Assembly (NCBI GenBank): GCA_951406725.2
Contig: OX597825.1
Location: forward strand, 76,074,001 to 76,138,000
Direction of reading: 5' to 3'
DNA length: 64,000 nt
Source: Octopus vulgaris
Taxonomy: Eukaryota
The notes below the pieces were generated by a model. The model was not told where the DNA came from and searched no databases. It saw only the letters and a program-made list of their open reading frames with translations. Shown here in pieces: positions 450-59,570 of this stretch. The position numbers and the translations under genes were made by a program. How positions within the stretch are numbered: the stretch's first letter is position 1; the number at the start of each line of letters is the position of its first letter.

Positions 450-676
450 TTCACTGATCCTCAGAGATTTATCAAAGAAATTGAATCTTAGGCTTGTGAT
501 TTCACTGTCTTCATATGTCTTCAGATTAAAATATCTAACATAGTAATCTCCATATATAGCTAGATGTTTCCAAAACAACTTTCTAGTGGTAGAAGATAAC
601 CTGTCTTGATTTATTTCTACGGTGAAATTTCGTTCATGTTCTTCAGGAGAAATAACTTTCAACTGCCAATCTTTAC
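450..676 (-). CDS. Host gene internal exon (long type, phase 1 to 0), third PLAT-like module: (S)KDWQLKVISPEEHERNFTVEIN...FFDKSLRISE
   Basis: Acceptor tttatatttcag| at 677-678 and donor GAA|gtaaaa at 449-448. Length 227 nt (3n+2), open frame inside ORF 282..662. Phase matches the upstream exon at 15885 (A+GT=Ser). An alternative donor atca|gtgaag a few nt earlier cannot be excluded. Confidence 0.75.
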
Positions 677-712
677 CTGAAATATAAATTCAGAAAATAT
701 GTCTTTTAGTGT

Positions 713-748
<36 letters not shown>

Positions 749-858
749 ATATGCACACATAAATACATATACATTTTAATCTGTAAGACCCTTAAGTGAT
801 GCATTTATATCGTTCACCTAAAGTACTCATAATTTGTTACATCATTTTGGATTTGTGG

Positions 859-1772
859 AAGTAATGATGTGGAAGTGTGGTAAGAAGTGGAGATGTGGCA
901 GTATGGTAAGAAGTGCAGCATGGTAAGAAGTAATGATGTAGCCGTGTGGTAAGAAGAAATGATGTGGGAGAGTATTAAGTAATAATGATATGCCAGTGTG
1001 GTAACAAGCAATGATGTGGTAATGGGGTGAGAAGTGATGAGGTAGCAGTGTAGTAAAAGTAATAATGTGGCAGTGTGGTAAGTAGTAATGATGTGGCAGT
1101 GTGATAAGAAGAAATGATGTAGGAGTGTGGTAAGAATTCACGATGTGGTTGTGTAGTAAGAAGTACAGATGTTGCGGTGTGGTAAGAAGTAACGATATAC
1201 AGTGTGTGAAGAAATAATGATGTAGCATTGTGTTAAGAATTCACGATGTGGTAGTGAGGTAAGAATGATATGGAGGTGTGGTAAGAAGTAAGAAGTGCAG
1301 ATGTGGCAGTGTAATAAAAGTAATGATGTGTGAATTGGTAATAATTAACGATGTGGTAGTTTGGTAACAAGTGATAATTTGGGAATGCGGTAAGAAGTAA
1401 TGATGTGGCAGTGTGACAAGAATTAATGGTGATACAGTGTGGTAAGAATACTGGTGTGACAGTGTGGTAAGAAGTAATGATGTAACAGTATTGTAAGAAG
1501 TAAAGATGTGGTAATGTGGTAGTGAAGTAAGTAGTAATAATTATGCGGCCGTCTGGTACGAAGTAATGATTTACTAGTTTTGCAAGAATTAATGATGTGT
1601 GAATGTGTTAAGTAGTATTGATGTAGCAGTGTGGTATGAAGTACAGATCTGGTAGTGTGGTAAGAAGTAATGACATATTAATGTGCTAAGAAGTAATGAT
1701 GTGGCTGTGTGGTAATAATTAATAATGTAGCAGTGTGGTAAGGAGTAATGATGTGGCAGTGTTGTAAGAAGT
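859..1772 (+). repeat. Degenerate ~26-bp minisatellite (consensus GTAATGATGTGGCAGTGTGGTAAGAA), roughly 35 units, derived from a SINE 5' head
   Basis: Unit recurs throughout the interval, and the last unit runs directly into a tRNA-like SINE body (gtttgcttgccaactgcatggtttgggattcattccc...). Confidence 0.85.
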
Positions 1773-1839
1773 TTGCTTGCCAACTGCATGGTTTGGGATT
1801 CATTCCCACTGTATGGCACCTTTGCCATGTGTCTTCTAC

Positions 1840-2625
1840 TATCAGGGTGGTCTGAAAAGTTCATAGGCTGTGTATGAAGGAGAGATGCTACAGTTGTGAA
1901 ATCTTGCATGCATTAATTTCAAATCTTCCTATTAATAAAGAAATAGTTTCTTTCCATCGAAACTGACATCTGACTGTTCAAGGAAGACTTCAAACGTAAG
2001 AGCTTGCCACTTCTCTTGCAAAGGGACAAAGTCTGGCATCGTGGTATTATCAAGTATTTGTAGAAAAAGTGATTAGACCCCAAGAACTGTCATACAGACA
2101 TGATTGCTACATTAATGGATAATGCTCCAGCTTTAATGAGAGTGCAAAAGTGAGCATCTGAGGGGAAGAGATAGTCTTAAAGATGGCTCAATGTCTGAAT
2201 GATTTGCAATTGCCACCACTCAGGAAAACAATTATTGTGTTCACCAATTGGTGATGGATGATTGATGATTAACTATAAATTAAACTAGCAGTATCGCCCG
2301 GCGTTGCTCGGGTTTGTAAGGGAAATAACTATATAAGCATTTTTAGAGAGTTACTTCCCTTATATAACCAGAGTAAAAATCATTAAAATGCGGAAAAATG
2401 ATGGTAATTTTTTTTTTAAATCGTAGACTCATCATAGATGCACGCTAATACCCAGAAGGGCTCGATATGAATCACGACTATAAGATACCCACTTTTGGTT
2501 AAACTGCACCGCAAAATGTGGGAGTAGTTAGGAATCTAAATCGGAGTAGACAGACACACACACACACAACTTTAGTTTTATATATAAAGATAGCGAATGT
2601 TATTTGCAAATCCAGTGAGAAAGTA
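1840..2625 (+). mobile_element. Decayed mariner transposon 5' part (TIR plus N-terminal HTH region of transposase), interrupted by a Helitron
   Basis: TIR-like tatcagggtggtctgaaaagttc. Conceptual translation DKVWHRGIIKYL..DMIATLMDNAP..GRDSLKD..ATTQEN..VHQLVMDD resembles the Himar1-type transposase N-terminus, with many stops. Confidence 0.7.
2285..2590 (-). mobile_element. Non-autonomous Helitron
   Basis: Minus strand starts TC (tctttatatataaaac) and ends with GC hairpin cccgagcaacgccggg followed by CTAG. Inserted between A and T with no TSD; the mariner sequence resumes on the other side. Confidence 0.85.
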
Positions 2626-5514: not shown

Positions 5515-8500
5515 TTGTTATCTCCCTTGCATTCTAACAGTCAAATTAAAAATACCTAGTTTTAAATTAGTATATATGAAATAATGTTCTAACATAAATA
5601 GATACATGTGTGCATGAATTGTGTATGTATGTAAATTGTAAAAAGTATATATATATATATATAATGTGTGTAGTGTGTGTGTATAAAAAAATAAGTTCAA
5701 AAAGAGCAATTCAAACGTTTTGAAGGATCCCCACCAAAAAGAAAAAAAGACAATACAAATATGTAAAAAATAATAATAATAATTAGTATTACTATTATAA
5801 AAATTGTACATTGTCATTCTCATCAGTGAAGAATAATTTAAAACTAAAATATGTAAAATACGTAAAACAAACTAAATTTCGATAACTTAATCTATATTCA
5901 TCAATTTATTTATTTATTTTATAAACACTTTGGTTTAATCTTATTCTACTTATGTTATATACACTACAAAATCTACTGTTAATTTACTACTACATTATAC
6001 TACTACAAATTATAACTACAAAAATTAGTAACATAAATCATGGTTAAATATATACATACACACATTAGCTAAACTTACTATATAAGTAATTTAACTTATG
6101 TCTACATTTAATTTTTCTCTCATCTTGGTAATTAAACAATTTTATATTATTAGATAGTAATATCTCCATAAATTCATTTGTACATAGTAAACAAAATCAG
6201 TACCTATTCGATAAGATTTAGCTTTACAAACTATCTCCCAATTTAAAATATACTTAATTCCTTTAGATTTCAATTTCCATATATATTTGCTAAGGACAGT
6301 AGAATTAATCAATGTTTTATTCTCAAATGAATGCATGTGTTGAGCCACCCTTAATTTAATTTATTAGAAGTTGACCCCACGTAAATTGCATTTAAATTAT
6401 AACTATTTGTATTAATATTATCATCAATCAAAGTAACTACACATTTATATACTACATCATACAAATTACATTTTGTCTTATCTCTACATGTACAATTAAT
6501 TATATTCTGGTCTTTATTATTATTAGAATAATTATTTAGCATGTTACTGTAAAACTTATTAAGCTTAAATCTATTAAAAGAAGAAATAATGTTACCAGCA
6601 TTCTTTGTATTAGAATAACCAATTCCAAAATTATTACTAGAAAAAAATGTTATATTTTTATTATCTATAATGAATACTTCAATTAGTTTTAATATCTCTT
6701 TAATAAAGTTTGTTTTAACTTGAGCCCTATAAAGAATAATTAACCAAATTTTGTTCTTATTATTAACATTATTTTTTATTTATTATATTATTATATTTAT
6801 AATTATCATTAAGCAAATTAAATTTATTCTTATCTTTTAGTCTATTATTATATTCATTTTTTGTATTATCATAATACCTATTATTAAAACCATAGTTACC
6901 TAAATAAAACTTTTCATAATTCTTAATATTAGGTTTATTATTATAAATATCATAGAAATTATTATATTATAAACTTTTATATTATGATTATATTTATAAT
7001 TATTGAAGAATTTAATACTAATATTATATCCTGCCTCCTGCAAGGCTTCATTATAATAAGATGTGTTTTTGGAAAATCTCAAAATTAGAAGAAAGCATCG
7101 ATATTCTTTTACCTATATTATCTATCAACGATTTCTTAATTGAGGGTGGGTGATTACTATTAGCATTAATATATCTAAGGTTTTCATTAATTTTATGGAA
7201 TGTTCAGGTTTTACCTGTTATTAAATTAAAATTAGCATCTAACTAATTAAAATTATAGTTCTCTTTATATATAGTAATACCTAATCTGTATCTTTTAAAA
7301 AAAAACATATAGTTTCTTCTTATATAATTCTAGTGTTCTATTGGTGCAATTCTTAATAAAAGGTCATCCCTATATAATACACCCTCCAACTTTAATTTTT
7401 CAAATTGAAGTTCTGATAATAATTAAATACCTACTAAATCAGTTACCTGGGCAGGATCGGGGGCCCCCATAGGTATATCAAAATAGTCTCTAGTATCCTT
7501 CCTAGCCCACACTTTATTATTATATCTAATCAACGATTCCCTAGCCTCTTTAACTACATTTTCATCATAAGTCATTCCAACCTTATTCTTTGCAAAAATT
7601 AGGGCCTTATTGAGAACAATCTCATTTATAGAAGAATAGTAATTATCTATATCTATTTGAATGAATTTATATCTATTTTTATCTTTAGTATTATTAAACC
7701 ATTTTAAAGTATCATTAGTACTACTCCAAAGTTTTAGATAATTAAGTTCATTTAATCTATTAATTTATTTATCTAAAATAATCTTAATTTACCTAGAGCT
7801 GATTTACATGGACAAACATGTCTAACTTTTGGGTCAGAATAAAAATTATCTTTATGATTTTTTAAAGTAATTCTAGGGTGCATAGGTATATAAGGTTCAG
7901 TTTTATTATCTAACTCATATTTCATCATGATTAATTTAGAGACCTTATTTATATTATAAAGAGTATTTTCAGGAACAATTTTACATTATCTATATATTTC
8001 TCTAATAGATTATCATATAATTTAACATCTAATTTATACAGGTTCTTAATTTTAACTGATTGTACTATAATTCCTTCCATATTTCACATTTCTTTTATTC
8101 CAATAGCTAGATTTCTTAAATATTCATTGTGCCTGTTATATTCCCCACTATAATTATATAGATGAATAACTAAACTTGTGTATGTGTATATGCATCTGTG
8201 TATACGTACATATGTCTGTATGTATGCATACAAAAATGATAGGTATATGTGTGTATATATAAGTATATATAAATATGTGTATACATAAGCGTCTGTATTG
8301 TGCAAATAAATCAGTTATAGGACAGAATTATTTTAGATTTAAAGTTATGAATATATAAAAATTTTAGTTAGATCATTTACTTATTTACGATCAAGCTCGC
8401 TCTTATATAGCATCTTTGTAAAGATTTTTAAAATTAAAAATATTTTCATTTGATATTTTTTGTCAAATAGTTAAAAAGATATGTCAATCTGATGAAGCAT

Positions 8501-8898: not shown

Positions 8899-11656
8899 CA
8901 TCATCATCATCATCATCGTTTAACGTCCGTTTTCCGTGCTAGCACGGGTTGGACGGTTCGACCGGGGTCTGGGGAGCCAGGGGCTGCTCCAGGCTCCAGT
9001 CTGATCTGGCAGTATTTCTACAGCTGGATGCCCTTCCTAACGCCAACCACTCTGCGAGTGTAGTGGGTGCTTTTTACGTGCCACCTGCACAGGTGCCAGA
9101 GGGGTCTGGCATCGGCCAAGATCGGTTGGTGCTTATTATGTGCCACCGGCACAGAAGCCAGTCGAGGTGGTGCTGGCATCGGCCACGTTCGGATGGTGCT
9201 TTTTATGTGCCACCGGCACAGAAGCCATTCGAGGCAGGGTTGGCATCGGTCACGTTCGGATGGTGCTTTTTATGTGCCACCGGCACAGAAGCCAGTCGAG
9301 GCGGCACTGGCAACGGCCACGTTCAGATGGGGCTTTTTATGTGCCACCGGCACAGGTATCACAACTACTGTTTCCATTGATATTTGGTTCGATGTCATGT
9401 ACATGCACTTGACTCGACAGGTCTCCTCAAGCACAGCGAGATGTTCCGGGGTCCAAGGTACTTTGAATGGGCAGGGGGTATGCAGAACTGGTGCCGGAAG
9501 CATCCCGGGTCTTAGTAGTCACAGCACATCTCCAGAGATCCCGGTCCTTCGCCATTGCCTCACTGAGGCCCAACGCTCTGAGGTCATGCTTGACTACCTC
9601 ATCCCATGTCTTCCTGGGTCTACCTCTCCCCCTGATTCCTTCAACTGTTTGAGAGTGGCACTTCTTCACACATCTCTCCTCATCCATCCGCAGTACATGA
9701 CCATACCATCGCAAGCGTCGCTCTTGCACACCGCATCTGATGCTTCTTATGCCTAGCATTTCTCTCAGGATGCTTACACTCTGTCGTGCATTCACACTGA
9801 CATTACACATCCAGCGGATCATGCTAGCTTCATTTCTTTCAAGTCTACGCATGTCATCTGCAGTCACGGCCCATGTTCCACTGCCGTGAAGCATGGCAGT
9901 TCGCACACATGCATCATACAATCTACCTTTCACTCTGAGTGAGAGACCCTTTGTCGCCAGTAGGGGTAGGAGCTTTCTAAACTTTGCCCAGGCTATTCGT
10001 ATTCTAGTGGTGACACTCTCTGAGCATCCACCCCCACTACTAACTTGGTCACCCAGGTAGTGGAAACTATCAACTACTTCTAGTTTCTCCCCCTGGAGTG
10101 TGATGGAATCTGTTTTCTGAGTATTTGTGGTGTCTATTGTCCCTGTGCATCTGCCGCACATGAAAGCTATCTTATCAGTTTACATTCCCTTTGATGTTGC
10201 TGCACCTCTTATGCATCCATAGCTTACACTGGGTGCATCTTATGGAGTTTCTACCTACACCTTTCCTACAACTCGAGCAGGGCCACCTGCCTGATGGGGT
10301 GTGTGTTGAGTTCGCCTTTCTGCATACTATAACTTTGGTCTTCGCTACATTTACTCTAAGGCCCTTTGATTCTAACCCTTGTTTCCACACCCGAAATTTC
10401 TTTTTTAGTTCCGGTAGTGATTCTGCTATGAGGGCCAGGTCATCAGCATAGAGGAGCTCCCAGGGGCAACCTGTTTTGAATTCCTCTGTTATTGCCTGGA
10501 GGACTATGATGAATAAAAGGGGACTGAGGGCTGAGCCCTGGTGTACACCTACTTCTACCCGGAATTCTTCACTATATTCGTTGCCAATCCTAACCTTGCT
10601 GACAGCCTCTCTGTATAGAGCCTGTACAGCCCTTATTAGCCATTCGTCAATCTCCAGTTTACGCATCGACCACCAGATAAGGGATCGGGGGACCCTGTCA
10701 AAGGCTTTCTCCAAGTCCACAAAAGCTATGTAGAGGGGTTTATCTTTAGCTAGGTACTTCTCCTGCAGTTGTCGGACCAGGAATAAAGCATCAGTGGTGC
10801 TTCTACCCAGCACAAAACCGAACTGCATCTCATCTAAGCAAATTCTCTCCCTAATGAGATGGGTTATGACCCTCTCTGTGGCCTTCATCACCTGATCCAA
10901 CAGTTTAATACCCCCGTAGTTATTTCTATCTAGAACATCACCCTTACCCTTGTAGCAGTTGACTATGGTGCTGCTACGCCAGTCATTGGGTATGACTCCA
11001 TTATGAACTACCTGGTTAACAATACGGGTGACTAGGCCATAGCCCACATAACCAGCTGTTTTAAGCATCTCAGCAGTGATACCTGATGGGCCGGGGGCTT
11101 TACCTGGTTTCATATCCTTAATTGCCTTAACTACAAGGGAGCTGTCTATTTGGATAGCTGGTCCCTCTACTGGGTCAACATTTGGCAGGCTCTCCTCCTC
11201 CCATTCATTCTCCACATTCAGCAGTCTTTCATAATGGCTTCTCCAAGCCTCTTTCTTTTCACCAACATTAAAAGCAAGTGCCCCATCATCCATGCGGACA
11301 CATTTCTCTCCTGTAACATCACTATTTTCTCTCACACACTGTCTAGCAATACGAAATACCTCAGTTCTTTGCTCCTCACGTCGCTGGACATTGGCAAACT
11401 TCTTCTTTTCTGCTATATCTTTGGCTATGTATACCTGCCGCCCGGCCTCCCTTTTGGCTACTTGGTACGGTTCCCTGCTACCCCCATCCCTCCAGGCTCT
11501 CCAGGCCTGTTTCTTTGAACTAATGGCTTTGTCTACTGCACTATTCCACCACCACGTAACTCTAGGTCTGGAAGGAACTTTGCACCATCCACAGATTTGG
11601 TCTGTGGCACTCAGCAAGCTGTCCCGTAGGAATTTCCAGCTACCTTCTATGTCCGA
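8898..11656 (-). mobile_element. 5'-truncated RTE-clade LINE, young copy
   Basis: RT ORF 10175-11689 (FVDLEKAFD, GVHQGS, LLYADD) continues after one frameshift into 9427-10161 (RLRWYGHV, RGRGRPRKTW). 3' UTR has tandem repeats and a (GAT)n tail; (TA)n on both sides. Confidence 0.95.
10175..11656 (-). pseudogene. RTE reverse transcriptase (partial ORF2) with PHD-like Cys/His finger
   Basis: RT motifs as above, plus CSSC..CTQC..HKRC..(frameshift)..CGRC. Confidence 0.9.
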
Positions 11657-12244
11657 TATATATATATATATATATGTACTGAACTTCAATTAGAAAATTT
11701 TAAGTTGGAGGGTGGTTTATATAGGGATGATCTTTTATTACTAAGAATTGCGCCAATAGAACACTTGAATTATATAAGAAGAAACTATATAGTTTCTTTA
11801 AAAGATATGGATTAAGTATTACTATATATAAGGAGAACTATAATATTAATTATTTAGATGTTAATTTGAATTTAATAACGGGTAAAACCCAACCATATCA
11901 CAAATTTAATGGAAACCTTAGATATATAAATGCTAATAGTAATCACCCACCCTCAATTAAAAATCGCTGATGAATAACATTGGTAAAAGAATATCATTAC
12001 TCTGTTATCATTTAAAGATTTTCAATGAACATGCACCTTATTATAATGAAGCCCTGCGAAAGGCAGGATATAATAATAATATCAAATTCTTTAATAATAA
12101 TAGTTGTAATTATAATATAAAAGATTATAATAAACATAATGTTAAAAATTATGATAAGTTTTATTTAGATAATTATGTTCTTAAAAATAGATATTACAAT
12201 AATACAAATCATAAGAATAATAATCGAAGAAAAAATAAAAATTT

Positions 12245-13325: not shown

Positions 13326-13904
13326 TAAATAATAAGAATAAAGTTTGGTTAATTGTTCCTTATGGGGCTCAAGTAAAAACAAATATTATTAAAGAGATTT
13401 TAAATATAATTGAACAATTCATTCGGGATAATAGAAAATATAATAAAATGTTTTCTAGTAATAATTTTGGAGTTGGTTATTCTACCACTAATAATGTAGG
13501 TAACAGTATTTATTCTTTTAATAAATTTAAGTTGAATAAATTTTACAAAAAGAAATTAAAATAATGATTCCAATAGTAATAATAAAGATAATCTTGTAAT
13601 TAATTGTACATGTAGAGATAAAAATAAATATAAATTTAATAATAAATGTAATTTGCATGATGTAGTTTATAAATGTATAGTTACTTTAATTGGTAATAAT
13701 ATGAATGATTATAACTTAAACGCAATCTATATAGGGTCGACTTCAAATAAAATTAAATTAAGGGTGGCTCAACATATAAATTTCTTCAAGAATAGAATTT
13801 TAATTAATTCTACTGGGCTTAGTAAATATATATGGGAACTTAAATCTAAACGTATTAAGTATAATTTAAATTGGGAGATAGTTTGTAAGGCAAAATCTTA
13901 TAGT

Positions 13905-14097
13905 CATCATCATCATCATCATCATCATCATCGTTTAACGTCCGTTTTCCGCGCTAGCACGGGTTGGACGGTTTCGACCGGGGTCTGGGGAGCTCGGGAC
14001 TGCCCCAGGCTCCAGTCTAGTCTGGCAGTGTTTCTACAGCTGGATGCCCTTCCTAACGCCAACCACTCCGCGAGTGTAGTGGGTGTTTTTTACGTGA
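13905..14097 (-). mobile_element. RTE LINE 3' end fragment inserted in the GIY-YIG ORF
   Basis: (CAT)n followed by cgtttaacgtccgttttcc..cagctggatgcccttcctaacgccaaccac, nearly identical to the 8898 copy. Confidence 0.9.
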
Positions 14098-15209
14098 TAG
14101 GTAGTAATTCTTGTTTATTATGTACTAGTGAATTTAAGGAAATAATATTTAATAATCATAATAAATTAACTAATTTATTAGATGAGCATAAAATTAAATG
14201 TAGACATAAATTACTTTACTCATATAAGTTTTTAGATAAATAGCGAGTATATTTAAACCCTATTTTTGTTACTCATTTGTTGTAGTTATAATTTGTAGTA
14301 GTATTAATTCTATAAGTTAGCATGTGATTGTATATTGTATATTACATAATTGAATAAGTTTAAATTAAATAATTATTATTAAATAAATAAATAAATTAAT
14401 ATTGTGTTGTGATTGTAGTTTTGTAGTAGTGTTTTGAATATAATTCAACACGAGTTTTTATAGGGTTTATTACATAGTTAGAATTAGATTAAAATTAGAT
14501 GTTTATTTAATTATTATTATTATTATTATATGTGAACTAAAATCTAAAAGTATTAAGTGTAATTACTTTGGGAAATAGTTTGTAACGTAATATATTATTG
14601 AATAGGTAGTAATAAGATTTTTTTTATGTACTATTTAATTTAATAATAATAATAAGTACTTTGTTTATTCTCTTAATGAGTGAAATATTAGATCTAGACA
14701 TAAATTAATTTACTTATATAATAAGTTTAACTTATTTGTGAGGATTTATTTAGGAATATTTATTTGATATATAAAATAAATTTTTTATTAGTGATGTAGT
14801 TTTGGTTTCATGGTAGTGTTTTGTATATATGTCAATATGAGTTTGTATAGGGTTTATTTAATATTTGGAATTAGATTAATTTTAGATCTTTATTTAATTA
14901 ATAAGCATATAATTCAATTAATGAATATTGATTAAATTATAGTTTTTTAAATTAACTTAGTGGTTCAAAAATTGAGACCGCTAGAATAAGTACCAGGCTT
15001 GCATAGAATGGGTCTTAGGGTTGAATTGTTTGAATAAAGGTGGTGCTCCAGCATGACCATATTTAGTCTATTTACTAATTATATACTATTTATTTATTAT
15101 CATGTACTTTATAGTGATCTAGGTAAATGTTTTATCTTAAATTATATTTTTTCTATATGATATGATTTACGTCTATCATTGTTTGAATTACATAATAGTG
15201 GTTTTTCTC

Positions 15210-15884: not shown

Positions 15885-15978
15885 TGTTCAGGAGTTTACA
15901 AGAATATTCAGGAGAATTTGTCTCGTCTATGTTAAAACAACCATATTCTTCTTCAGGAAGCATTCTTGTCATGGCAAT
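15885..15978 (-). CDS. Host gene exon (short type, phase 0 to 1): IAMTRMLPEEEYGCFNIDETNSPEYSCKLLN
   Basis: Acceptor ataatttttcag|, donor A|gtaaga, 94 nt (3n+1), open frame; phases fit both neighbours. Confidence 0.85.
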
Positions 15979-19128: not shown

Positions 19129-19361
19129 TTTGGATATGTCAATAGATTTGTTTTTGTTTCCAAAGGATATTTCAATCTCACCAATGTTTATATTTCCAAT
19201 ATTGGTAAAAGCAGAAAATGTTGGGAGATAAGCTAACTTTTTGAACATCAGACTTCGTGAAATATTTGTTTCTCTGCCAGTCACTCTAACACACATTTGT
19301 ACTTCTTTTGTATCTCCAACTAGTTCTTGGCGAGAAGTTAGTTCTATTTTCCACACAGTAT
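19129..19361 (-). CDS. Host gene exon (long type, phase 1 to 0): (D)TVWKIELTSRQELVGDTKEVQMCVRVTGRETN...NIGEIEISFGNKNKSIDISK
   Basis: Acceptor ctttcttttctag|, donor AAA|gtgaga, 233 nt (3n+2), within ORF 19006..19500; alternating hydrophobic pattern like PLAT/LH2 beta strands. Confidence 0.85.
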
Positions 19362-24153: not shown

Positions 24154-24792
24154 GTATATGTATATGTATGTATATACATATATACAATGGCCTTCTTTCA
24201 GTTTCTGTTGACCATATCCACTCACAAGTCTTTGGTGTGTCTGAGGTTATAGTAGAAGACACTTGTCCAATGTACCACCGCCATCAAGATAGCTATTGAT
24301 ACACGATCTGTATCCATTATAACCTTCGAACAAGGGAGGTCAGCCGCTTCACACTGCCAGTCCGACAACTACAGACGCGTTTCGGGGTATCATCATCATC
24401 ATCATCGTTTAGCGTCCGTTTTCCATGCTAGCATGGGTTGGACGGTTCTACTGGGGTCTGTGAAGCCAGAAGGATGAAAGGCAAAGTCAACCATGACAGA
24501 ATTTGAACTCAGAAGGTAACGAAATGCCATTAAGCATTTTGCCCAATGTGCTAATGATTCTGCCAGCTTGCTTCCTTCTACTAAGGAAATATTATCATGA
24601 ATGTGGCTTTGGAAACTGGCGTTAATGGGAGGATTTAATTCTTTGTGGTAACATCAATACAGTCATTTATAATTCATTTTGCTCACTCACCTTTTTAACA
24701 ATAACATCAAGTAAAAGTCCCACAGGCAGAAAGGCAGACCTATTTCATAATTTCTAATAAAGTGAAATAAGAAATATCTTTCATCAACTTAC

Positions 24793-24877
24793 CATTTATC
24801 AATGAACACTCGTGGAAAGTATGATCAAGATATAGACAGGAATATATTTTGGAAGTGTTCATGTTCTTCAGTATGAC
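24793..24877 (-). CDS. Host gene short exon, variant A: VILKNMNTSKIYSCLYLDHTFHECSLIN
   Basis: Acceptor ccttttactttag|, donor G|gtaagt, 85 nt (3n+1), open frame. Confidence 0.8.
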
Positions 24878-25354
24878 CTAAAGTAAAAGGAAAATAGAAA
24901 AATGAAAATTATGTGTCCAGGAATTACATGAGTTTGGAGATGAGTCAATTTGTTCTTGATCTTGTAATTACAAAGATGAGAAATATCTAATTTATCCATC
25001 CATTCAGCAATTCTATCTCTACTTCACATAAAGTCTTTTTTTCCCCAAATATTGATAGCTTTATAGTCAAGCAAGACCGTGTTTACAGGAGCTGAGCTGT
25101 TCAGATTTACTCATTAAGAAATTAAAACAACATAGAAGAATTATATAAATTCACAAATAATGGCAGCAGGGAAGGAGCCTGGTCTTGTCATCTGAGTATA
25201 TTCAACTTGAAAATATTACTCTATTCTAAATCATAAATTCATATAGAACTGAATGTAGAAACAGAGGTAGTGATGGAGTCTGGTAGATATAATATGTCTA
25301 CATTTGGGTCGTTTACCTATTATATCCCCTTTTGCGTCTACATAGGCTATCTAC

Positions 25355-25401
<47 letters not shown>

Positions 25402-25999
25402 CATATATACAATGGGCTTCTTTCAGTTTCTGTTGACCATATCCACTGACAAGTCTTTGGTGTGTCTGAGGTTATAGTAAGAGACACTTGTCCAATGTAC
25501 CAGACTGTGAGATTGAACATGAAATCATGTATTTAAGAAGCAAAATTCCAAACACTACCAAGGAAATATTGGCTTCAAATTTTGGCATAAGGCCAGCACA
25601 TTCTGAGGAGGGAATAAGTCAATTACATTGACCCCAGTCTGCAACTGGTACTTATTTTATTGACTCCATAATGATGAAAGGCAAAGTCAACCATGGCAGA
25701 ATTTGAACTCAGAACATAAAGGTAGACGAAATGCCATTAAGCATTTTGCCCAATGTGCTAATGATTCTGCCAGCTTGCTTCCTTCTACTAAGGAAATATT
25801 ATCATGAATGTGGCTTTGGAAACTGGCATTAATGGGAGGATTTAATTCTTTGTGGTAACATCAATACAGTCATTTATAATTCATTTTGCTCACTCACCTT
25901 TTTAACAATAACATCAAGTAAAAGTCACACAGGCAGAAAGGCAGACCTATTTCATAATTTCTAATAAAGTGAAATAAGAAATATCTTTCAGCAACTTAC

Positions 26000-26096
26000 C
26001 GTTTTTCAATGAACACTCGTGGTAAGGAATTCGAGAAGTATAATTAAGATATAGACAGGAATATATTTTGGAAGTTTCCATGTTTTTCAGTGTGAC
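26000..26096 (-). CDS. Host gene short exon, variant B: VTLKNMETSKIYSCLYLNYTSRIPYHECSLKN
   Basis: Acceptor ctattttcctttag|, donor G|gtaagt, 97 nt (3n+1), open frame. Confidence 0.8.
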
Positions 26097-27522
26097 CTAA
26101 AGGAAAATAGAAAAATAGAAAATTATGTGTCCAGGAATTACATGAGTTTGGAGATTAGTCAATTTGTTCTTGATCTTGTAATTACAAAGATGAGGAATAT
26201 CTAATTTATCCATCCATTCAGCAATTCTATCTCTACTTCACATAAAGTCTTTTTTTTTCCCAAATATTGATAGCTTTATAGTCAAGCAAGACCGTGTTTA
26301 CAGGAGCTGAGCTGTTCAGATTTACTCGTTAAGAAATTAAAACAACATAGAAGAATTATATAAATTCACAAATAATGGCAGCAGGGAAGGAGCCTGGTCT
26401 TGTCATCTGAGTATATTCAACTTGAAAATATTACTCTATTCTAAATCATAAATTCATATAGAACTGAATGTAGAAACAGAGGTAGTGATGGAGTCTGGTA
26501 GATATAATATGTCTACATTTGGGTCGTATCCCTATTATATCCCATTTTGTGTCTACATAGGCTATCTACCCTGCCTTTTTATATACCATCTCACCTCTTT
26601 ATCAGCTCTGTCCCATTCATCTCTCTATTACTCACACTCAGTTCACCATTCATTTCTTCTAGTCACTCTGCTCTGGTGTATGTGTAACTAAGGATAGTAG
26701 TGAATCCTTCCTTTTCTTTGTACCAAGCAGCTAATGTAGAGATGCTGTCGGCTTTGTCTAGCCTCTTGTCTTTCAGATACTCACCCTCTCTCCTTACTCT
26801 GTGCCATTCAGCCTGTCTTATGAAAGATGACACTGGAACCATCTAGTCTCAATCCCACCTACAACCATCCCATCATTCCTTTCTATACAGTCACTCTTCC
26901 TTCACTCTTCTCTTCAGTCTTCTCACTCTTCTCTTCACCCACCGATCACTCTTCCTTCTCCTCTTCACCTTCTCTTCATCCACCTTTCTCCTCAGTCTTT
27001 CTGTTACTGCCACCATACACTTCTCCTTTACGCAAACACATCCTAGTTTCTCCCACCACCGCTCTATCATTCACCCGCTTTCTCACATTGCATTAAGTGA
27101 ACAGACACACAGCATAAACTAGGAAATCTCATTAATTTTGGTAATATGACAAAATGCAACTAGCGTACTTTTTAATTGGATTAGCAATTAACTGAAGATA
27201 GCATAGGGTGAAGATGACCTCTTAGTCTTATGAAGAACATGAGAGTCTCCCTATCATGTGTGTGTCCATGTAACTGATTACATTCTGCACAGAGGTGAGC
27301 TAGATATGGTGAGGTTTGTTGACTATTCTTTGCCAGAAAGTTGTCCAGTATCTCTGCACTTTCTAAGACAAGTGGAATGAAATTTCTCTCATCTACAACA
27401 CAAGTAAGGATTGACAAGAAGAACGCCCTGTTGTAAAGCAATGCCTTCGTAATAGGTATTCATCTAACTCATGCAATCATAGAAGAACAAATATATAGCT
27501 AACAAACTGATATATTTAAAGA

Positions 27523-38558: not shown

Positions 38559-38770
38559 AATTGTGTCTAACCAAAAATTTCCATAGTCAAAACTCGATAA
38601 CTCTATTGTTGAATTTGTATTCATTTCCTTTGGAAGGAAGAATGATATATTTGATGTTCTAGAATTTGTTCTAAATCTTATATAGCGTGTCACATCAGGT
38701 TTTATTTGGAAAGACTTAGGATAAAAGTAATTCATCTCACTGAATAAAACTGCAATGTTCCAACGTACCC
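38559..38770 (-). CDS. Host gene exon (long type, phase 1 to 0): VRWNIAVLFSEMNYFYPKSFQIKPD...IELSSFDYGNFWLDTI
   Basis: Acceptor ctattaccttctag|, donor ATT|gtgagt, 212 nt (3n+2), within ORF 38517..38831. Confidence 0.85.
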
Positions 38771-44191: not shown

Positions 44192-44250
<59 letters not shown>

Positions 44251-44252
44251 TT

Positions 44253-44293
<41 letters not shown>

Positions 44294-44843: not shown

Positions 44844-44907
44844 CCATGCTGATGAAGGCTGCAGTTATCCTTACGGATAATAATAGCCGAAACTGATCAG
44901 TACATGG
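44844..44907 (+). ncRNA. Type I hammerhead ribozyme
   Basis: ccatg-CTGATGA-a-ggct..ttatcc ttac ggataa..agcc-GAAA-CTGATCAG-TA-catgg; predicted cleavage after 44902. Confidence 0.88.
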
Positions 44908-45349
44908 GTAATTATTTTATTTCGTATATTTTCACTTGTTTATTGCTTTGGTTTCGTGCTGAGTTTTGATCTGAGAACATAATCTTTTGTGGAGAATGGC
45001 GATTTGACGTCTATATCTAGCATGTTGACTGTCCACTTTTCATGTTCAGTCCTTAATTGGTATATATAAATATTTTAATCTTCGGAATCTTTTTTAATAT
45101 GCTAGACCACTGGTCTTAATTGATAAATATCAATTTCTACCCTTAATTAATTTTATATAAATAAATATGTTCTCTAACCGATAAATTGACTGCTGCTAAT
45201 TATTAGCTGCAGGCTGGTTTTCTCGGGTCTCAACGCGCCAAAGTAAAGGCATTTGAAATATATATTCGAATGTAATAGGCTGAACTCCATGCACTCGATA
45301 CTTCGGTATCGTGTTTGCATCTAGTCCAGCAAATTGCATTTATAACGGA

Positions 45350-45413
45350 CCATGCTGATGAAGGCTGCAGTTATCCTTACGGATAATAATAGCCGAAACT
45401 GATCAGTACATGG
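45350..45413 (+). ncRNA. Type I hammerhead ribozyme (tandem copy)
   Basis: Identical motif 506 nt downstream; predicted cleavage after 45408. Confidence 0.88.
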
Positions 45414-45780
45414 GTAATTATTTTATTTCGTATATTTTCACTTGTTTATTGTTTTGGTTTTGTGCTGAGTTTTGATCTGAGAACATAATCTTTTGTGAAG
45501 AATGGCGATTTGACGTCTATATCTAGCATGTTGACTGTCCACTTTTCGTGTTCAGTCCTTAATTGGTATATATAAATATTTTAATCTTCGGATTCTTTTT
45601 TAATATGCTAGACCACTGATCTTAATTGATAAATATCAATTTCTACCCTTAATTAATTTTATATATATATATATATGTGTATGTATATATATATATATAT
45701 ATATATATACCGGAGTAAACACATAAATGTGAAACAAGGTGGAAAAAAGAGTACTCAAATACCAGTAGTAGAGTAATATG

Positions 45781-46299: not shown

Positions 46300-49200
46300 T
46301 ATTAGGTGTTGTATTTTCGAATCATCACAGCTGCAATGTCAATAGATTTCAAAGTCTTACCTTGAGTTTTATTAATAGACATTGCGAAGCAAAGTTGCAC
46401 TGGGAACTGTGTTCATTTGAACTCAAATGGCATGTCTGTTGCTTTGATTGCAATTCTTGGAATGAAAACCTCTTCCCCAGAGGCACATCCGGTGATGATG
46501 GTAACTTCTATTACATTAGGTGATAATGTCTTCACAATCAACCTTGTCCCATCACATAATTTAGGAGGATCTAAATTTCTTAGAAGCACTATTAGGACTC
46601 CTACCCTCAGAAGAAGTTTATGTGGAGGAATTTCAGGTGGTTCAAGAGCACTAAAGAACTCTGTTGGATAATGGACAGCTTGATTTTCATCAAGGACTGA
46701 ATCAACTGATTTTTACTCTTTAATGACTGTTGGTTAATCCTTGCAACTGTTTCATTTTTGGAGCAAGAATTGTCCTTTCACATAAAATTTTATGTGAATT
46801 ATAATTATTACTCAAGTCTGAAAATACCCTGTTCTTCAATTCAGCTGGAGAATTCATCATGATAACAATATGAGCCAAATTGATATCACTATTCCCATCA
46901 AATTGTACTTTCTTACTTTCTAATTGGAAGAGCCAAGTTAAAACCTGTTCTGCACATTGGTTCTCATGTAATAAACTTCACATGTTAGTATTGAAGGAGA
47001 ATTTCTGTACTTTATTCCATAGGTGTGAAGACTTAATGCTTCTTTAATTTCATCAGATCTTGTTCCTCTCAGAATGACTGATAATGTCTGCCTGAAGTCA
47101 CCTGATAAAACTAATGTAACTCCTCCTATAGATTTATTGTTGCCTCTTATGTCCTGTAAGGTCTTATCAAGAGCTTCCATTGCACCTCTATGTGACATGG
47201 TGCATTCATCCCAGATGATCAGGTGGCATTGGCACAACACTTCTGCTGAACCTGAACCTTTGCTTATGTTACAAATTGGACTCTCATTTCTGACAAGATT
47301 TAGCAACAATTTAAAAGCAGAATGAGCTGTTTATCCTCTTGGGAGAAGCGGGGCAGCAATGCCAGGTAATGCTACAGCAACTGAAAATCTTTTTTCTTGC
47401 TTTATCTTGGAGAAAAGCAATGTTGCTACAAATGTTTTACCTGTGCCACCAGGAGAATCTGATTGACAAAATAATTTTATCATATGCACAGTATTGTTGT
47501 GGAAGATGTTCATGTTCATTCACAAATGCAGCCAACTGTGTGATGTCATGTCTCTCTTGCTATGTCTTTTAAAGTAAAATCACAAATTTGACAGTTTGTT
47601 TTTGGCAGTCCAGAGCCAAACTCTTGTAAATTTTTGCCTCCCATGGCCAAAACTTCAATTCAATTAATGCTTGGTGAAAATTATTTCAGAGAACTGAATA
47701 TTGATATCTGGGTTTGCCAGTTGAACTGCCAACTTTAAGACCTCAGCCATGTCCTTACAGGGTTTCCTTGGAGAATCTGATACTGATGCTTCAGTCAATG
47801 CAAGGTCCCAATGCTCATCGTTTTCTAAAAAACCTTGTTGATAGCATGCTTCCCTATAAGTTTAACACACATGACCATTTACCCTCCTCAAATCTTGGAA
47901 TGATTTGGGATTACATACTTCATGCAAAAGGAACTGTTAGTAATAGCATTCTGCTTGGCTTGGGTAGACACTGTAAACTCTTGGCAGAACGTCAGCCCCA
48001 CGTGCCATTGTTGTTTCTCCAGATGTAATACTTGGGTAACTCTGAGTAGAGAAATTTTCTTGCATCTTCATCTACTTGACACAACTTTAAAAAGGCAGTA
48101 AGGGTAGTTTCTTTTGAAGAAAGTGCTTGTTGCAAGGCTGTCTGTTTTGTAAGAATAATCCTTTGGCCATTCTCTAGATGGACACTCAGATGAATGATGG
48201 CTGGGTGCCTCTCATGAATGAGAAAATTGAAGATGCACCAAAAAGCCTCATTGCTACTGATGTATTTTCCTTTGTCATACTGTGCATCCTCATCAGTTTT
48301 ATTTGTCTGCTGACTGCCATTCTGCATAAAAGTGTATGTTGCAGCAACTAAACCTTTGTTTATATATTTGCAAACATACTTAATAGACTTAACAGAGTTG
48401 CAGAATCCAACTTTGATATGGGCTTTGAAAGTTTTTGTAAGAAGAGAACAGTAGGGTACAACCCACTGATTGTCAATGATGGATTCTTGCCCTTTTCTCA
48501 TTCTTTTTTGAGAAGTAAATCCACCATGCCCAGGTTTTCTTTTTATGTAAAGTGGGTAGCTACCTTCTCCAGTTTGGGTTTCTTGTACAGAGGGACATGG
48601 GTAGTTCTTGGTACACTTATTATACCTCATGCATGGGAAGGATGGATTAACTGAACCACATGGCCCATGGATCATATGGGACTTGACAATTTCATGCAGC
48701 AAAGGATCTTGCTGTGGATCAGGCAGTTCAGCTGAGAAAAATAAATCAATATCATTTGGTCAAAGTTTTTCATGTAACCAAATCAAAATGTGGGTATGTG
48801 GAAATCCTTGTTTGTGTCATTCAAATTGTGTACATGTCACATTTGACTGTTCCAAAGACTTTGCCTTTTTTTAGGAGATCCAACAGCTTTATGACTTTAA
48901 GTCTGAACAGCCTAGCTATAATATCATGCGATATTTGGCTTCTTGATGATGATAAAGCTTACTCTTTATTTCATGCCATGTAGGGTCACATGTGATTGTA
49001 ATGAAGAGATCTGGACAATCATAGTGTCTGACATATGTAAGTGCATCTTGGGTACACTCATGCATATACCATGGACTTGCTGTAAAGCTTGATGGAACAA
49101 TGGCACAAAGCTGTCCAATGTTTTCAGCAGTCAATGCTCCTTCATTACTGATTGCATCTCTCAGGTGAATGTAATCTGATGCACGGAGATCTTTCTGATG

Positions 49201-51179
49201 TGTTTTAATGTAAAAAAGCCTTTTCCCTTCAATTTTTGCATACATATCAACTGCAAATTGCTGGAAGAGCTCACGTGAACAATGAAGAATATTGCTATCT
49301 TAATATGAATAGGTAAGCATAGAATTCCATGCAGCTTACTACTTTCATCAGTGCAGGATCTCTTGTTTTAAGATCTGTTTTTTTTCCTTATTCCAAAAGT
49401 GATATCCATCTTGGTCAAATACACAGATTAATGGATACTGGAGTGCATCATATGATCGGAGGGTTGCATTTATTCACTGAATATTATTTCTTCTTCCTTA
49501 AATAATAATATCTCTCTTCCCATACTTGTTGCCTGTAATAATTGCTGCTATTTCATAAGCAGCAGAGGCATCGTAGTGGCCTCTGTGCTCATATTTTTGT
49601 CTGCATCAATAACTATCTCGTATTCAGTGGGTAGTGCAGATTCCAATGCATACTTGAGGCTTCTGATGTAGCTATTGTTTGCATGCAACATATCTTGCAG
49701 ATCAAAGATTACCTCTTCTTTCAAATTTGGATGGTTAAATGACCATTGCTAAGCCTGCTCCTTGTAATTTGCCACAAAATATAACTGTAAAAACTGAGGA
49801 TTTTTGCTTTCAGTTGGCAACAAAGATCCAGTATGATGGTATACTTGACTGTGAACTTTAAAAGTTGGCTTCATGTTTCCTACTCTTATAACACTGCTAC
49901 CAAAGGAGGTCATTTAGAAAGCAGAAATATAATTGCTAAAGTTTTGCAAGAAGTGCATATTCCTTGGTGTGTCTCCCAAAATCAATGCCTTCAAAGTATC
50001 TGTGGGTGTACCAAATGTTGGCAAAACAACCGTTCCTCCACCACAACACATAGTGGTGGTTTCTCTTTCCCGTTTCTTTCCTTTACAAAATCTGCACTCT
50101 TTTGACATTGCTCTAATATCAATCAATTTCTCTGTAAAAAAAATTTGTTTTGGATCATAACTGAAAGCTGATCTTTTCCAAGTCCCCTTAAAAGATGCAA
50201 CTCTTTTGTCAAACATCTTGATCAAGATGCTATGTTTTTCCTCTGAGGATTGGCAAAGTCTTGCAGCAACTGTTTGCTCCTGTTTTTTTCTTTGTCTCAT
50301 CTCTCGCCGACTTACTGTCTCATTGGCAACTCTGGCAGCTTGTCTTTTTCTTGCATCTTTTAAACGTTTTTCTTTTTCCTTTTTTGACCCCTGGCTCCTG
50401 CAGATTGCATTTTGTTGACATAATTGTTCCACCCATTTTCCCCTTGCCTCTTGTGACTCATTGGCCCTGCATGCAGCAACTCTCCTCTGGTTGTTTTCTT
50501 GTCTTTGCTGTTGTTGTGAAGGGGTCTCTAGTGACCTTACTCTGGCTACATGTACTTGTCTTTGCTTCACTGTAAAATACTGATCATCTACATCTACCCC
50601 GTCTCCTCTTGTAGAGAGTAAGAAAATTTTTCTCGGAAACCCTTTTTGAAAATTAAAATGGGGATTAAATGAAAAAATGAGAGAAAGTTATGTGAATATC
50701 TTCATAAGAGTGATTGAAATAAAAGGTGATTGTGGCACGCTGCACAAATGCATACACACACACACGCATGTGCGCATGCATATACAGTGTCAAACATCAA
50801 CGTTTCTTTCTCTCTTGCTTTCCTCCTTTCTTTGTGCTGGCTCACTTTCACCTTCACCTATAGAACATGCATACAGTATCAAACATCAGCGTCTCTCCTC
50901 TCTCTCTCCTGCCATGTCTCTCTCTCAATAGAAACTTGTTTTCTCTCTGTTTTTTCTCTCTTCTCTCTACCTTTCTCTCATTCTGCATTTCTTTCACAAA
51001 TAATCTCTCTGTAATAGTTCATCTCTTTTAGTCTATGTCTGTTTCTGTCTGTCTGTCTCTTTTTAACTCACTCATACACTTACACTATCTACATTTCTCC
51101 CTCTATTGAAAAATGTGATGAATGAGATGGGGGAGGAGAAGTAAAGACCAGAAGTAAAGAGCACAGACATCTGCTAATA

Positions 51180-52980: not shown

Positions 52981-53030
<50 letters not shown>

Positions 53031-53081
53031 GTGAGGGAAGAAATGGAGCTGGACGAAGATTTTACAAAATTCCTTTTTATT

Positions 53082-53167
53082 ATTTTCTACATATGTTTCA
53101 AAGGCTGCAAAGTCCCTAATTCGGATTGAATAAGGAGACCATTTTGCAGCTTTCTCTTCAGGAAAAT
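53082..53167 (-). ncRNA. Type I hammerhead ribozyme in pLTR
   Basis: attttc-CTGAAGA-gaaagctgcaaa..tttgcagccttt-GAAA-CATATG-TA-gaaaat on the minus strand. Confidence 0.85.
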
Positions 53168-55101
53168 CCAGGAACTTAAATCTCCAAACAAATATGCAGC
53201 AAGCTTTTCGACAAACGCTCTCTAGGAGCCCATGAATGGCACAAAACTGTCTCTCAATATGCGTTGACGTCAGGGTGGGTGAAAGCAGACGAAAAAGTCC
53301 GTTGAGATAATTCGGGGTCAACTCCCGGTTAGCATTGGGAAGGGGAAGAATTACAGAAAACCAAAGAGTTTGAATATATTCTGTATAACTAGTGTTAATA
53401 TTCGAATTGTTTAAAGAATGAATGCTATCGTATTTGGGTGTGAGAAACTACCTACATGTATGTGTGTGCGCGCCTATGTATGTGTGGCAGTATGTTTAGG
53501 AAGGAGCTAGGCAGAACTATATAGCGGCTATTAATGGTCAAGCAGCCGATAGAAACCTGTGTCTGTGTGTTCGTCTGTGACCAGTTTATAGAGAGATGAC
53601 TTGCCGACAAGGGGCGTATAATCCCTGATAGTGTTTCTAAATAATTAGCAGTTCATACGCTAAAGGGGAGTAATTTCCCCTTTCAAATTTAATTCAAAAT
53701 TTTTTCAAATTTTTTTCCAAAATTTTTTCTTTTCTTAGGACATCAAGGTGTTAATTATCTTAGACTTCAATTATATGCAAGAAATGTATGCGCCGCCAAT
53801 GCGGACATCTAAAAGAGTTTTGCAAAATCGAGTTAACTAATTGCCCTCGGGTGAACAAAATGTGAAAAAGTTCAGAGTTGCAAAGATTACAGATTCTTTT
53901 ACCTCTATCAAACGGTACAGACACCGATAAAATCGACCATTCCAGTCTAAAGGCTGTATTCGCGTTCTTCAAACGCCATACTAATTTACTTAGTCCGGTC
54001 GCGTGTTGTTTTCCAAAATCGCGAAACGTTGTGAAGTGGTTCGATATTCTGGCGGCCAATTTTGATGATGACGCTCCGATATACAAGTAGACATCTGATT
54101 CAGTATAAACTCTGCATTGGTAAATGGCGTTTCTAATCTTGGAATTACTAGATAAGAACCTTATTCTATTGGGATTGGCTTCCGATATTAATACGGCGTT
54201 CTTATTACTATGATGATTGTAAGAACTACGGCTGTCTACGACATTATACACCCCACTATCAATACTATTTAATGGAATATCACCTGTATATTCCCTGCCA
54301 CTGAGATCACTGTGGTTGCTAATGTCCGTGATGCTACTGTTGTTAAACCCACTGCTAAAATTGTTATTGGAACTCCCTACACTAATGACTCGGACAGTGC
54401 TCTCATCCCTATTACCATTACTAACGTTAATGCCACCACCATTGCTCTTAACCTTATTCCTATTATTAACTCCATGGCTGGTATGGAGATTGCTAATCTC
54501 TGTGCCGGTTCCATTATCATTATTATTATTATTAATACTGCACGTTGTTCTGGCATTAGACGGAGCTGCGTCTCCGAACGTGGGTGAGAGTGTCGTATTA
54601 AGCAGCCTATTGTTATGGGAGGAAATTATCTGTGAGAGATTTTTAGTATTGGAGAAGGCTATCCTAACTTTGTGTGAGTTAACAGTGGAGTAATATCTGG
54701 AATTTCTGGGAAAATTACTGGCAATGGCTTGGCGAAACTGCAGGGCTTTTTAAGTCGATGGAGACACCACCACCTAACCCAAGACTGAAGAAATTTGAGG
54801 ATGACTTATACATGTAGGTAGTTTCTCACACCCAAATACGATAGCATTCATTCTTTAAACAATTCGAATATTAACACTAGTTATACAGAATATATTCAAA
54901 CTCTTTGGTTTTCTGTAATTCTTCCCCTTCCCAATGCTAACCGGGAGTTGACCCCGAATTATCTCAACGGACTTTTTCGTCTGCTTTCACCCACCCTGAC
55001 GTCAACGCATATTGAGAGACAGTTTTGTGTCATTCATGGGCTCCTAGAGAGCGTTTGTCGAAAAGCTTGCTGCGTATTTGTTTGGAGATTTAAGTTCCTG
55101 G

Positions 55102-55187
55102 ATTTTCCTGAAGAGAAAGCTGCAAAATGGTCTCCTTATTCAATCCAAATTAGGGACTTTGCAGCCTTTGAAACATATGTAGAAAAT
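55102..55187 (+). ncRNA. Type I hammerhead ribozyme in inverted pLTR
   Basis: Same motif on the plus strand; predicted cleavage after 55181. Confidence 0.85.
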
Positions 55188-55379
55188 AATAAAAAGGAAT
55201 TTTGTAAAATCTTCGTCCAGCTCCATTTCTTCCCTCACTAAATATATAAAACTTCAATTATCCGCACTAAGGCACGGTTGCGATACCCCAACCGTGATTT
55301 GTCTGTTGTGATTTTTGCTACCCAGGTATCGGTTATAATTTGAATAATCCGTTACAAGATAATTCATTTATCCATTTCA

Positions 55380-56575: not shown

Positions 56576-56590
56576 ACATACATACATACA

Positions 56591-56627
<37 letters not shown>

Positions 56628-57199
56628 ATATATAGGGATATACATGGAAAGAAATAAAAACTGTAAATACTCAGATGATGAACACCCATGTTTAAGAATA
56701 TAAATATTTATATATTTGCAAACTAAATTTACATGGAAATGAAAGGGATAATGCATTGTTTTTAAGTCCAATGCCCGCTTCTCGGAGTTCAGAAATATGT
56801 AATATTTGCAATGCTTGCGATTAACAGATAGGATGTGCAAAAAGTAAAGGATATGCAAGCAGTAGATGGATGCAAAGAGTGAGCAAGGGGTGGGGGAGAG
56901 AATAGTGGCATTATTGCCAGCTGATGCATTAAGCTGACTTCCTTCATTATTGGGACAAGATTGGTAAACTGTAGTTCACATTTTGTTGCAAGAAAATTTA
57001 AGGGTAGAATATATGTGTGTATATATTGCTTGCTTCCAATGTTATCCAGCCAAACTGGCGCATAATGGGAAAATACTATGAAATAAGTTATCCTGAAATG
57101 TAAATATGAATGGAATAGAACAAAATTTGCATAAATCGAACAAGTGGTTGTGAAGATATTAGGGGTTTTCAGAGTACTTTGAAAATTCGGCTTTAGGAT

Positions 57200-58430
57200 C
57201 AATACCACTAAAACCAATCCTATGGCTGCGATATGTTGATGACACCTTCATACTCTGGCCCCCACCAGGAAGATGTCCAAGTGCTGTTAGATCATGTGAA
57301 CTCAATAAAGCCATCCATACAGTTCACAATGGAAAAAGAGAAAGACAATCAGCTAGCATTCCTGCACATATTAATAACATGTACCAAGTATGGATTCAGG
57401 ACATCCATATACTGCAAGCCGACCTTCACTGGACGATACCTCAACTTCAAATCCCACCATCCATACAGTGTAAAGAGAGGGATTGCTCAGTGACTAAAAC
57501 ATTGAGCAATGAATATAAGTAGCGATCGTGATACCCACCACGAAGAAATGATCAAGCTCAGTAACAATCTAATGAGCAACAACTACCCCAAAAGCATACT
57601 CTCCACTCCAATTATGAACAAAAGAAAGGATGAAACTGATAAACTGTACACATCTGTCTACCCTTTGTAAAAGGCCTCTCCAAAAAGATACAAAAGATAT
57701 GCAGCCCATATGGTATCAGGACAGTATTCAAAAGTAATACAACACTTTGCAAATATCTCCTTCGAGTAAAACCACCAATAGAAGAGAATATGACTAAGAA
57801 CTGCATGTACTCCATCACATGCAGCTGTGGTAGGTTATACAAAGATGAAACATGCCACCCCCTCAAAATAAGGGTAGAGGAACATCGCAAACTGTGACAT
57901 GGGGAGATATTGATAAATTGAGTAAAGCTGATCATGTATAGAAAAATGGAAACCAACTCCACCTATGGGATGAAGTTAAAATAATAGACAGAGAACAACA
58001 CTGGAAAATTCGAAAACTAAAAGAAGCAGCACATATGCTAGGACACAACAACCTCCTAATCAGACTGAGTGCAGATATGAACAGCATAGGGGAACCAGTA
58101 TTAAGGAAGGATAGGAGAATATTAGATTTATAAGCCCTAAAATTCACTCCATAATTGCCCACAGGCATATGGCATAGTGGTTAAGTGCACAGGCTACTAA
58201 CCCCCAAGATTCCAAGTTCAATTCCAGGCAGTGTCCTGAATAATAAAAATAATAATAATAATAATAGTAATAATAATAACAACATCGAAAAATACCTTAG
58301 GGATGATAACCTAGGTTCGAAATTTCCCCAAGACGCTAGATGAAGGCTGGAGGGTATATCAGCCAAAACGTTGTGTTAGCAATAAGCAAGATGAGGACAA
58401 ATATCTGTCAATTGTAAATAATGTATATTA
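57200..58430 (+). mobile_element. Decayed Penelope-like element (RT C-terminus + GIY-YIG)
   Basis: WLRYVDDTF, IQFTMEKE, LAFL.ILI, YLNFKSHHP..VKRG, MYSITCSCG..Y; degenerate hammerhead near 58335-58378. Confidence 0.85.
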
Positions 58431-59482
58431 TTTGATGTTTAAAATTTCCCTCTGCTAAACATTTAACATTTTTCTCTCTCTCTCTCTTTCTCTCTACCTC
58501 TCACTTCAACAAATACTTTAGCCATGTTATTCCCCTCTTTACGTCGTTATCATTTCTCTCTCTTTCTCTTCGTCTCTCACTTCCAGTAACCACATGACAG
58601 CTTAATACATCAGCTGCCAATAATTGCAGCTAGATTCTTCTTTCTTTTTCCATACAAACATGAAGATTTCAAATAATTAATAATTTTCTGCATACATCAT
58701 TCAGTAAATCAACCCTAAAATTATTTGTCCAAATTCTTAAACTCTGAGCAACATTAATGCTTTAGCCATTTTAAAAAGTATTACATTTTTATCCATTTTC
58801 ATGTGTCAACATTGGTTGGAAAAGTTCTTGAAAATTTCAATAATGACATGTGATTGACTGGAGATATTGATTTTACAGTTGTTTGTCTTTTTTATTGCTG
58901 ACAACACAACTGTGAATTGAACCACTAAATGTAGAAAATGTCTTCCCCAGGGATTGAATAGGAACAATAAAATTTGAGCTCATAATACTGATCTTCACAG
59001 TTGAGCATATTAATCTTACAATTATTACATTTCTTTGTGTGTGTGTGCATGTGTGTGTGCACATGTGTGGGGGTATGTGCATGCATGTTTGTGTGTGTGT
59101 GTGTATTTGCATACATGTTTGTGTGTCTGTGCATGAGTGTGTATGTGTGTCAGTATGCGTGTGTACATGTATGTGTACATGAGTGTGTGTTTGTACATGT
59201 GTGTGTGTACATGTGTGTGTATGTGCATGTGTGTATGTGTAATGAGTCTGTATGTACACATCTGTGTGTTTGTGTGTGTGGTGCATGAGTGTGTGTGTGC
59301 AAATGTGAGCAAGAGTGTGTGTATATGTGTGTGTGTGTGCATGGGTGTCTGTGCATGAGTGTACATGTGTGTGTGTGTGTATGTTTGTGTGTGTAAGTGA
59401 AAAATATTCCTTAAGGAGTTTAAAGGAGAAAGAAAAGCTAAAAAGAAAAGAATAAAGAAGAGTTCTAAAGCAAAAATCTTAC

Positions 59483-59570
59483 ATTTTTCTAAATTCACCT
59501 TCTTGTAGTTACAAGCTGATGAGCATCTGCCACCATACTTTACTGGAAGATCTGTATTTTCAACATGTGC
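59483..59570 (-). CDS. Host gene exon (short type, phase 0 to 1): AHVENTDLPVKYGGRCSSACNYKKVNLEK
   Basis: Acceptor ctattttattttag|, donor T|gtaaga, 88 nt (3n+1), two Cys like the other short exons; phase fits the 38770 exon. Confidence 0.7.

Follow-up and report, generated by a model that had tools for sequence, protein, structure and literature searches.

The 64 kb of Octopus vulgaris DNA analysed here (assembly GCA_951406725.2, contig OX597825.1, positions 76,074,001 to 76,138,000; hereafter the window) is AT-rich, repeat-rich, animal-type sequence that carries, on its minus strand, part of a gene from an octopod multi-gene family. Complete members of this family are predicted, on the window gene's relatives, to be single-pass type I membrane glycoproteins in which PLAT/LH2-type modules, from the membrane-distal M0 to the membrane-proximal M3, precede one helix and a tail that is unstructured and carries tyrosine motifs, and we place high confidence in this architecture. 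We also lean, by a modest degree, towards the view that these proteins act as diversified recognition receptors. M1 and M2 lie in the window together with the end of M0 and the start of M3; they are encoded by seven exons at six exon positions with AG/GT ends throughout and introns of 1.1-20.7 kb:

59483..59570, minus strand: short exon, end of M0; 88 nucleotides (nt), phase 0 to 1, two Cys
38559..38770, minus strand: long exon of M1; 212 nt, phase 1 to 0
26000..26096, minus strand: short exon of M1, copy A; 97 nt, the length typical of the family
24793..24877, minus strand: short exon of M1, copy B; 85 nt, with a 12-nt in-frame deletion
19129..19361, minus strand: long exon of M2; 233 nt, predicted PLAT/LH2 fold
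15885..15978, minus strand: short exon of M2; 94 nt, final strands of the predicted PLAT fold, two invariant Cys
450..676, minus strand: long exon of M3; 227 nt

These exons agree in length and phase with an earlier sequence-only reading, which had described long and short exons alternating in one open frame; the spliced frame has no stops with either the 97-nt or the 85-nt short exon, and 21 when both are included. They are beyond chance, as 237 residues from five exons (85-nt form) occur letter for letter in a deposited O. vulgaris protein, P0005, and identity to O. sinensis P0004 is 80-94% for all exons. The M0 exon is 100% identical to residues 84-112 of P0005 and 86% to P0004, the long M1 exon matches P0005, P0021 and P0004 at 100%, 94% and 80%, copy A matches P0007 and P0023 at 94% and P0004 at 91%, and the M3 exon, absent from P0005, matches P0004 at 93%. 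It is this homology, rather than an open-frame scan, that is decisive: of the three real long exons, all on the minus strand, a simple scan for long exon-like frames recovered two and overlooked one, and its only other frame, on the plus strand, was unrelated. A tblastn search of the window with the family detected no additional family exon, and the gene thus runs past both window ends, as had been proposed.

The gene had been thought unannotated, which proved incorrect. Because P0005 ('Hypothetical predicted protein', 330 residues) contains five window exons letter for letter, the gene already has a public model, which covers five of the six exon positions and lacks 676-450; the gene is annotated yet uncharacterised. 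The last exon of P0005 is absent from the window, and the model stops after M2 without a membrane helix. O. sinensis P0004 (LOC115217841, 536 residues), by comparison, has a signal peptide, M0-M3, a stalk, a helix (454-478 in the model) and a tail. The early end of P0005, the deletion in copy B and the frame broken by inclusion of both copies would fit a window copy that is truncated, secreted or decaying, whatever the function of the family. We regard such a state as doubtful, given the canonical splice sites and open frames in all seven exons and the close match of exon 676-450 to the membrane-anchored P0004. No description of the family was found in open-access papers, although subscription papers and preprint supplements could mention it, as could Supplementary Table 4 of PMC9068888 (clade-specific arrays), which lay outside the search; nor did searches of open-access papers return any that link PLAT with octopus or name six family gene ids.

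Both short M1 exons lie within a duplicated segment:

24466..26571 (25666-26571 and 24466-25356), no strand assigned: tandem duplication of ~0.9 kb carrying both short-exon copies, 94.5% identity

The duplicates differ at 9 of 85 exon positions versus 11 of 746 intron positions (Fisher p 5e-5; inclusion of the ragged end gives 16 of 800 intron positions and p 2.6e-4), and the exon substitutions are mostly residue-changing. Copy B is the form used in P0005, and its splicing together with copy A breaks the frame. All five of its changed residues are present in other paralogues, three of them together in O. bimaculoides P0006, which, with the concentration of substitutions in the exon, points to exon-limited exchange or selection, two processes that these sequences do not distinguish. 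P0007, too, seems to have a duplicated short exon, that of M0, with the second copy off-frame, so such duplication recurs. An intronic segment of the window at 22871-22968 (minus strand) is 78-89% identical to the exon predicted to come last in paralogue P0023; it may be intron sequence common to paralogues, or a repeat, and is possibly a cryptic terminal exon.

The assignment of M2 and M3 to the PLAT/LH2 fold is supported by predicted models. M2 (predicted-model residues 211-324; pLDDT 84.7) forms a whole-domain beta-sandwich that superposes on solved PLAT domains, as does M3 (residues 325-432 of the P0004 model; pLDDT 72.4). M0 and M1, with 7 and 8 predicted strands, are probably shortened, diverged PLATs; chain-wise structure matching reports one best alignment, falling on M2 or M3. 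We take the PLAT/LH2 domain to be Pfam PF01477, the accession given in the sequence-only reading, and Pfam scans of the seven exons and of sets of 20, 10 and 9 family proteins returned no PLAT match, which explains the 'uncharacterized' status of the family in databases. The label of PLAT/LH2-like modules is therefore upheld for M2 and M3 by structure comparison, with none above the Pfam cut-off. Similarly, the proposed two-exon repeats are real as exon pairs, but the modules are not confidently alignable to each other by sequence, and the proposed two-Cys module end applies to M0-M2, which have conserved Cys pairs (those of the M2 short exon invariant, 21/21 and 20/20), and not to M3, which lacks conserved Cys. 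A PDB sequence search gave no match, and no catalytic domain was seen, the ectodomain models being all-beta with matches limited to the PLAT part. Foldseek rows to KIR/LILR had root-mean-square deviations of 16-32 and so are not fold matches. Structural matches to lipase, lipoxygenase and Rab6IP1 are tied within 1 Z unit. This tie speaks against a further reading, in which a lipase C-terminal domain gave rise to proteins that capture and take up lipids or lipoproteins and whose tail tyrosines serve as sorting signals; nor would a housekeeping uptake role lead one to expect the diversity gradient or the enrichment of YxN described below, and we find this role very improbable.

Hydrophobic N-termini (16 of 18 family proteins), positive charge higher after the helix than before it (13 of 14), an excess of sequons (128 observed, 74.8 expected) and the Cys pairs of M0-M2 together place the modules outside the cell, in support of the surface location suggested earlier. 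The one internal helix is C-terminal to the modules. In the tails, tyrosines lie in SH2-type contexts, defined from SH2 binding preferences, above shuffle level: across 13 non-redundant tails, left from 22 scored after removal of two false calls, near-duplicates and short tails, we counted 21 YxxPhi (9.3 in shuffles), 10 YxN (4.1) and 15 Y[ED] (7.6), while YxxP, at 7 versus 3.7, was not significant. Strict immunoreceptor tyrosine-based inhibitory or activation motifs (ITIM/ITAM) are rare, with strict ITIM mostly juxtamembrane and a single ITAM-like pair. Three family proteins, one of them from Argonauta, carry an acidic-V/I-YxxL/I core, which excerpts of PMC11507803 report in Botryllus FcoR.

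The three long exons, used as queries, recovered 20 proteins among 573 candidates (nine from O. sinensis, four from O. vulgaris and six from O. bimaculoides). When 1.84 billion representatives were searched with a profile, 30 matches were obtained at E up to 0.001; eight of them had been seen before and 22 were new, two of the latter from Argonauta hians (P0034 and P0005 share 27% identity, E 5e-22). Every match with a named organism falls within Octopoda, in agreement with the suggested lineage specificity; among named matches the family appears octopod-restricted, and the narrow profile leaves room for older relatives. In a midpoint-rooted tree (25 rows, first 470 residues; without the fused, module-duplicated or fragmentary P0008, P0011, P0012, P0020, P0022, P0031, P0033 and P0036-P0045), the Argonauta pair split from all others and the window gene fell in a group of five vulgaris/sinensis proteins, which is supported and stands beside one bimaculoides protein. 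P0008 looks like a model fusing adjacent family genes. Complete members carry between 3 and 5 modules. P0011, P0012 and P0031 contain duplicated modules and P0016 and P0007 lack M3, a pattern that may in part reflect annotation error or splicing. Indirect signs of a common contig (4/4 O. vulgaris, 5/9 O. sinensis, 3/6 O. bimaculoides and 2/2 Argonauta proteins), which carry no gene positions, suggest that the genes may be clustered. From these comparisons, the family appears to have expanded via gene duplication with module gain and loss, and exon exchange between copies probably contributed.

Identity across 10 full-length Octopus proteins climbs from 41% in M0 to 66% in M3, and distal exons are about 32-37% identical across the family. 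As a recognition receptor, such a protein would bind a variable ligand, perhaps a microbial or cell-surface lipid or protein, through its variable distal modules, with the conserved proximal PLATs as stalk or partner surface; clustering would lead a cytoplasmic kinase to phosphorylate the tail tyrosines, which would recruit SH2 proteins. The likeliest use would be an immune or self/non-self role. Rapid, distal-biased divergence with lineage-specific duplication is also typical of reproductive proteins, yet a multi-gene family with signalling tails suits a receptor repertoire better than a single sperm-egg pair, and we consider gamete or reproductive-tract recognition improbable. Cell-adhesion or cell-identity molecules of neural or epithelial tissue, homophilic or partner-binding like clustered protocadherins, would share the type I layout; guidance receptors, too, carry YxN and YxxP motifs, and clustered expansions of neural adhesion genes are known in octopus (excerpts of PMC9068888). 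The distal-exon identity, with 80-94% for O. vulgaris/O. sinensis best matches, seems fast for wiring molecules, and six O. sinensis gene ids are absent from three brain atlas supplements (PMC9712504), itself weak evidence; an adhesive role appears unlikely.

A bolder form of the recognition hypothesis, which we offer tentatively, is a self/non-self system of the octopods' own, with PLAT as its scaffold. The family would be clustered and recombining; its distal modules would tell individuals or microbes apart, its tails would integrate activating and inhibitory tyrosine signals, and mutually exclusive or skipped exon modules would add diversity. The octopus sucker recognises its own skin, and such a system would be a candidate basis for this behaviour or for octopus immune specificity. 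Own-skin recognition could also fall to contact chemosensory receptors of skin or sucker for hydrophobic cues. PLAT domains bind lipids and proteins (excerpts of PMC8051682), suckers detect hydrophobic molecules via expanded, positively selected receptors (excerpts of PMC11526382), and the confinement to octopods among named matches would be in keeping. Known chemotactile receptors, however, are ion channels, and tyrosine-kinase signalling would be slow for a touch reflex, making this role decidedly unlikely.

The window also contains repeats and remains of mobile elements:

10175-11689 (minus), 35617-37320 (minus), 21284-21757 (plus) and 28985-29557 (minus): intronic reverse-transcriptase frames (RVT_1) of long interspersed nuclear elements (LINEs)
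near 9427, 16600-17900, 42080-43750 and 62226: further LINE copies
46413-50687: Helitron-like remains, with a PIF1 helicase fragment at 46938-47330
41298-41807 (plus; Transposase_1) and 33560-33847 (minus; by eye): Mariner-type transposase fragments
53021-53461 and 54808-55248: inverted repeats, 441 bp, 99.3% identical, flanking a 329-aa frame (53760-54749)
44166-45710: nested inverted repeats, 90-98% identical
858-1772: 26-bp minisatellite, directly upstream of the M3 exon acceptor
61687-62141: 160-bp tandem repeat, 94%
9066-9355, 17405-17696 and 34817-35057: 62-67-bp tandem units inside a common dispersed repeat

The frames next to the PIF1 fragment have the look of Rep fragments, and the end of the 329-aa frame resembles a GIY-YIG endonuclease of Penelope-like elements; Pfam gave no match for the latter frame or for two tested neighbours of the PIF1 fragment. 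Fragments related to the 53021-55248 element lie near 6351-7764 and 13560-14243.

Compared with known PLAT/LH2 proteins (lipoprotein and pancreatic lipases, lipoxygenases, Rab6IP1/DENND5), the octopus modules are 4-21% identical, and the family carries tandem modules on a membrane anchor in place of a catalytic domain. LOXHD1, to our knowledge, has neither signal peptide nor helix, whereas the octopus family is multi-gene and combines four modules with a signal peptide, sequons, disulfide-type Cys pairs, a helix and a tyrosine tail, which bears out the earlier separation from LOXHD1; the two share tandem PLAT repeats, of which LOXHD1 has 15 (excerpts of PMC8051682), with little else in the protein. 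PKD1/REJ proteins, mostly multi-pass, are also membrane proteins with a PLAT domain, but theirs is single and intracellular, after the first helix, and accompanied by REJ and GPS (excerpts of PMC1934368), while the octopus PLATs precede the sole helix, are predicted to lie outside the cell, and came with no REJ or GPS row in a Pfam scan of 20 family proteins. Plasmodium CCp3/LAP1 is an extracellular adhesive protein whose single LH2 sits among LCCL and scavenger-receptor domains (excerpts of PMC10892792); no sequence similarity to the octopus family was found. By prediction on relatives, the octopus proteins have the type I topology with tail tyrosine motifs of ITIM/ITAM-type receptors. KIR/LILR and Hydractinia Alr are diversified innate receptor families of similar layout. 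Botryllus fester/FcoR comprise clustered multi-gene type I proteins with variable ectodomains and tail tyrosine core motifs (excerpts of PMC11507803); the octopus family resembles them in all of these respects, if its genes are indeed clustered. The octopus ectodomain differs from those of such receptors in being PLAT, not immunoglobulin or Sushi, and no canonical ITIM/ITAM set stands out in the tails. By analogy, the layout would be typical of immune or self-recognition receptors, built on an unusual domain: PLAT has so far been known from enzymes, the inner face of PKD1 and LOXHD1, and our searches of open-access papers found no account of a single-pass receptor family with an ectodomain of tandem PLATs. 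If this is a recognition system, the family would supply concrete genes for octopus immunity and self-recognition, and would represent an independent route to diversified innate recognition alongside those based on immunoglobulin, lectin and leucine-rich-repeat domains.
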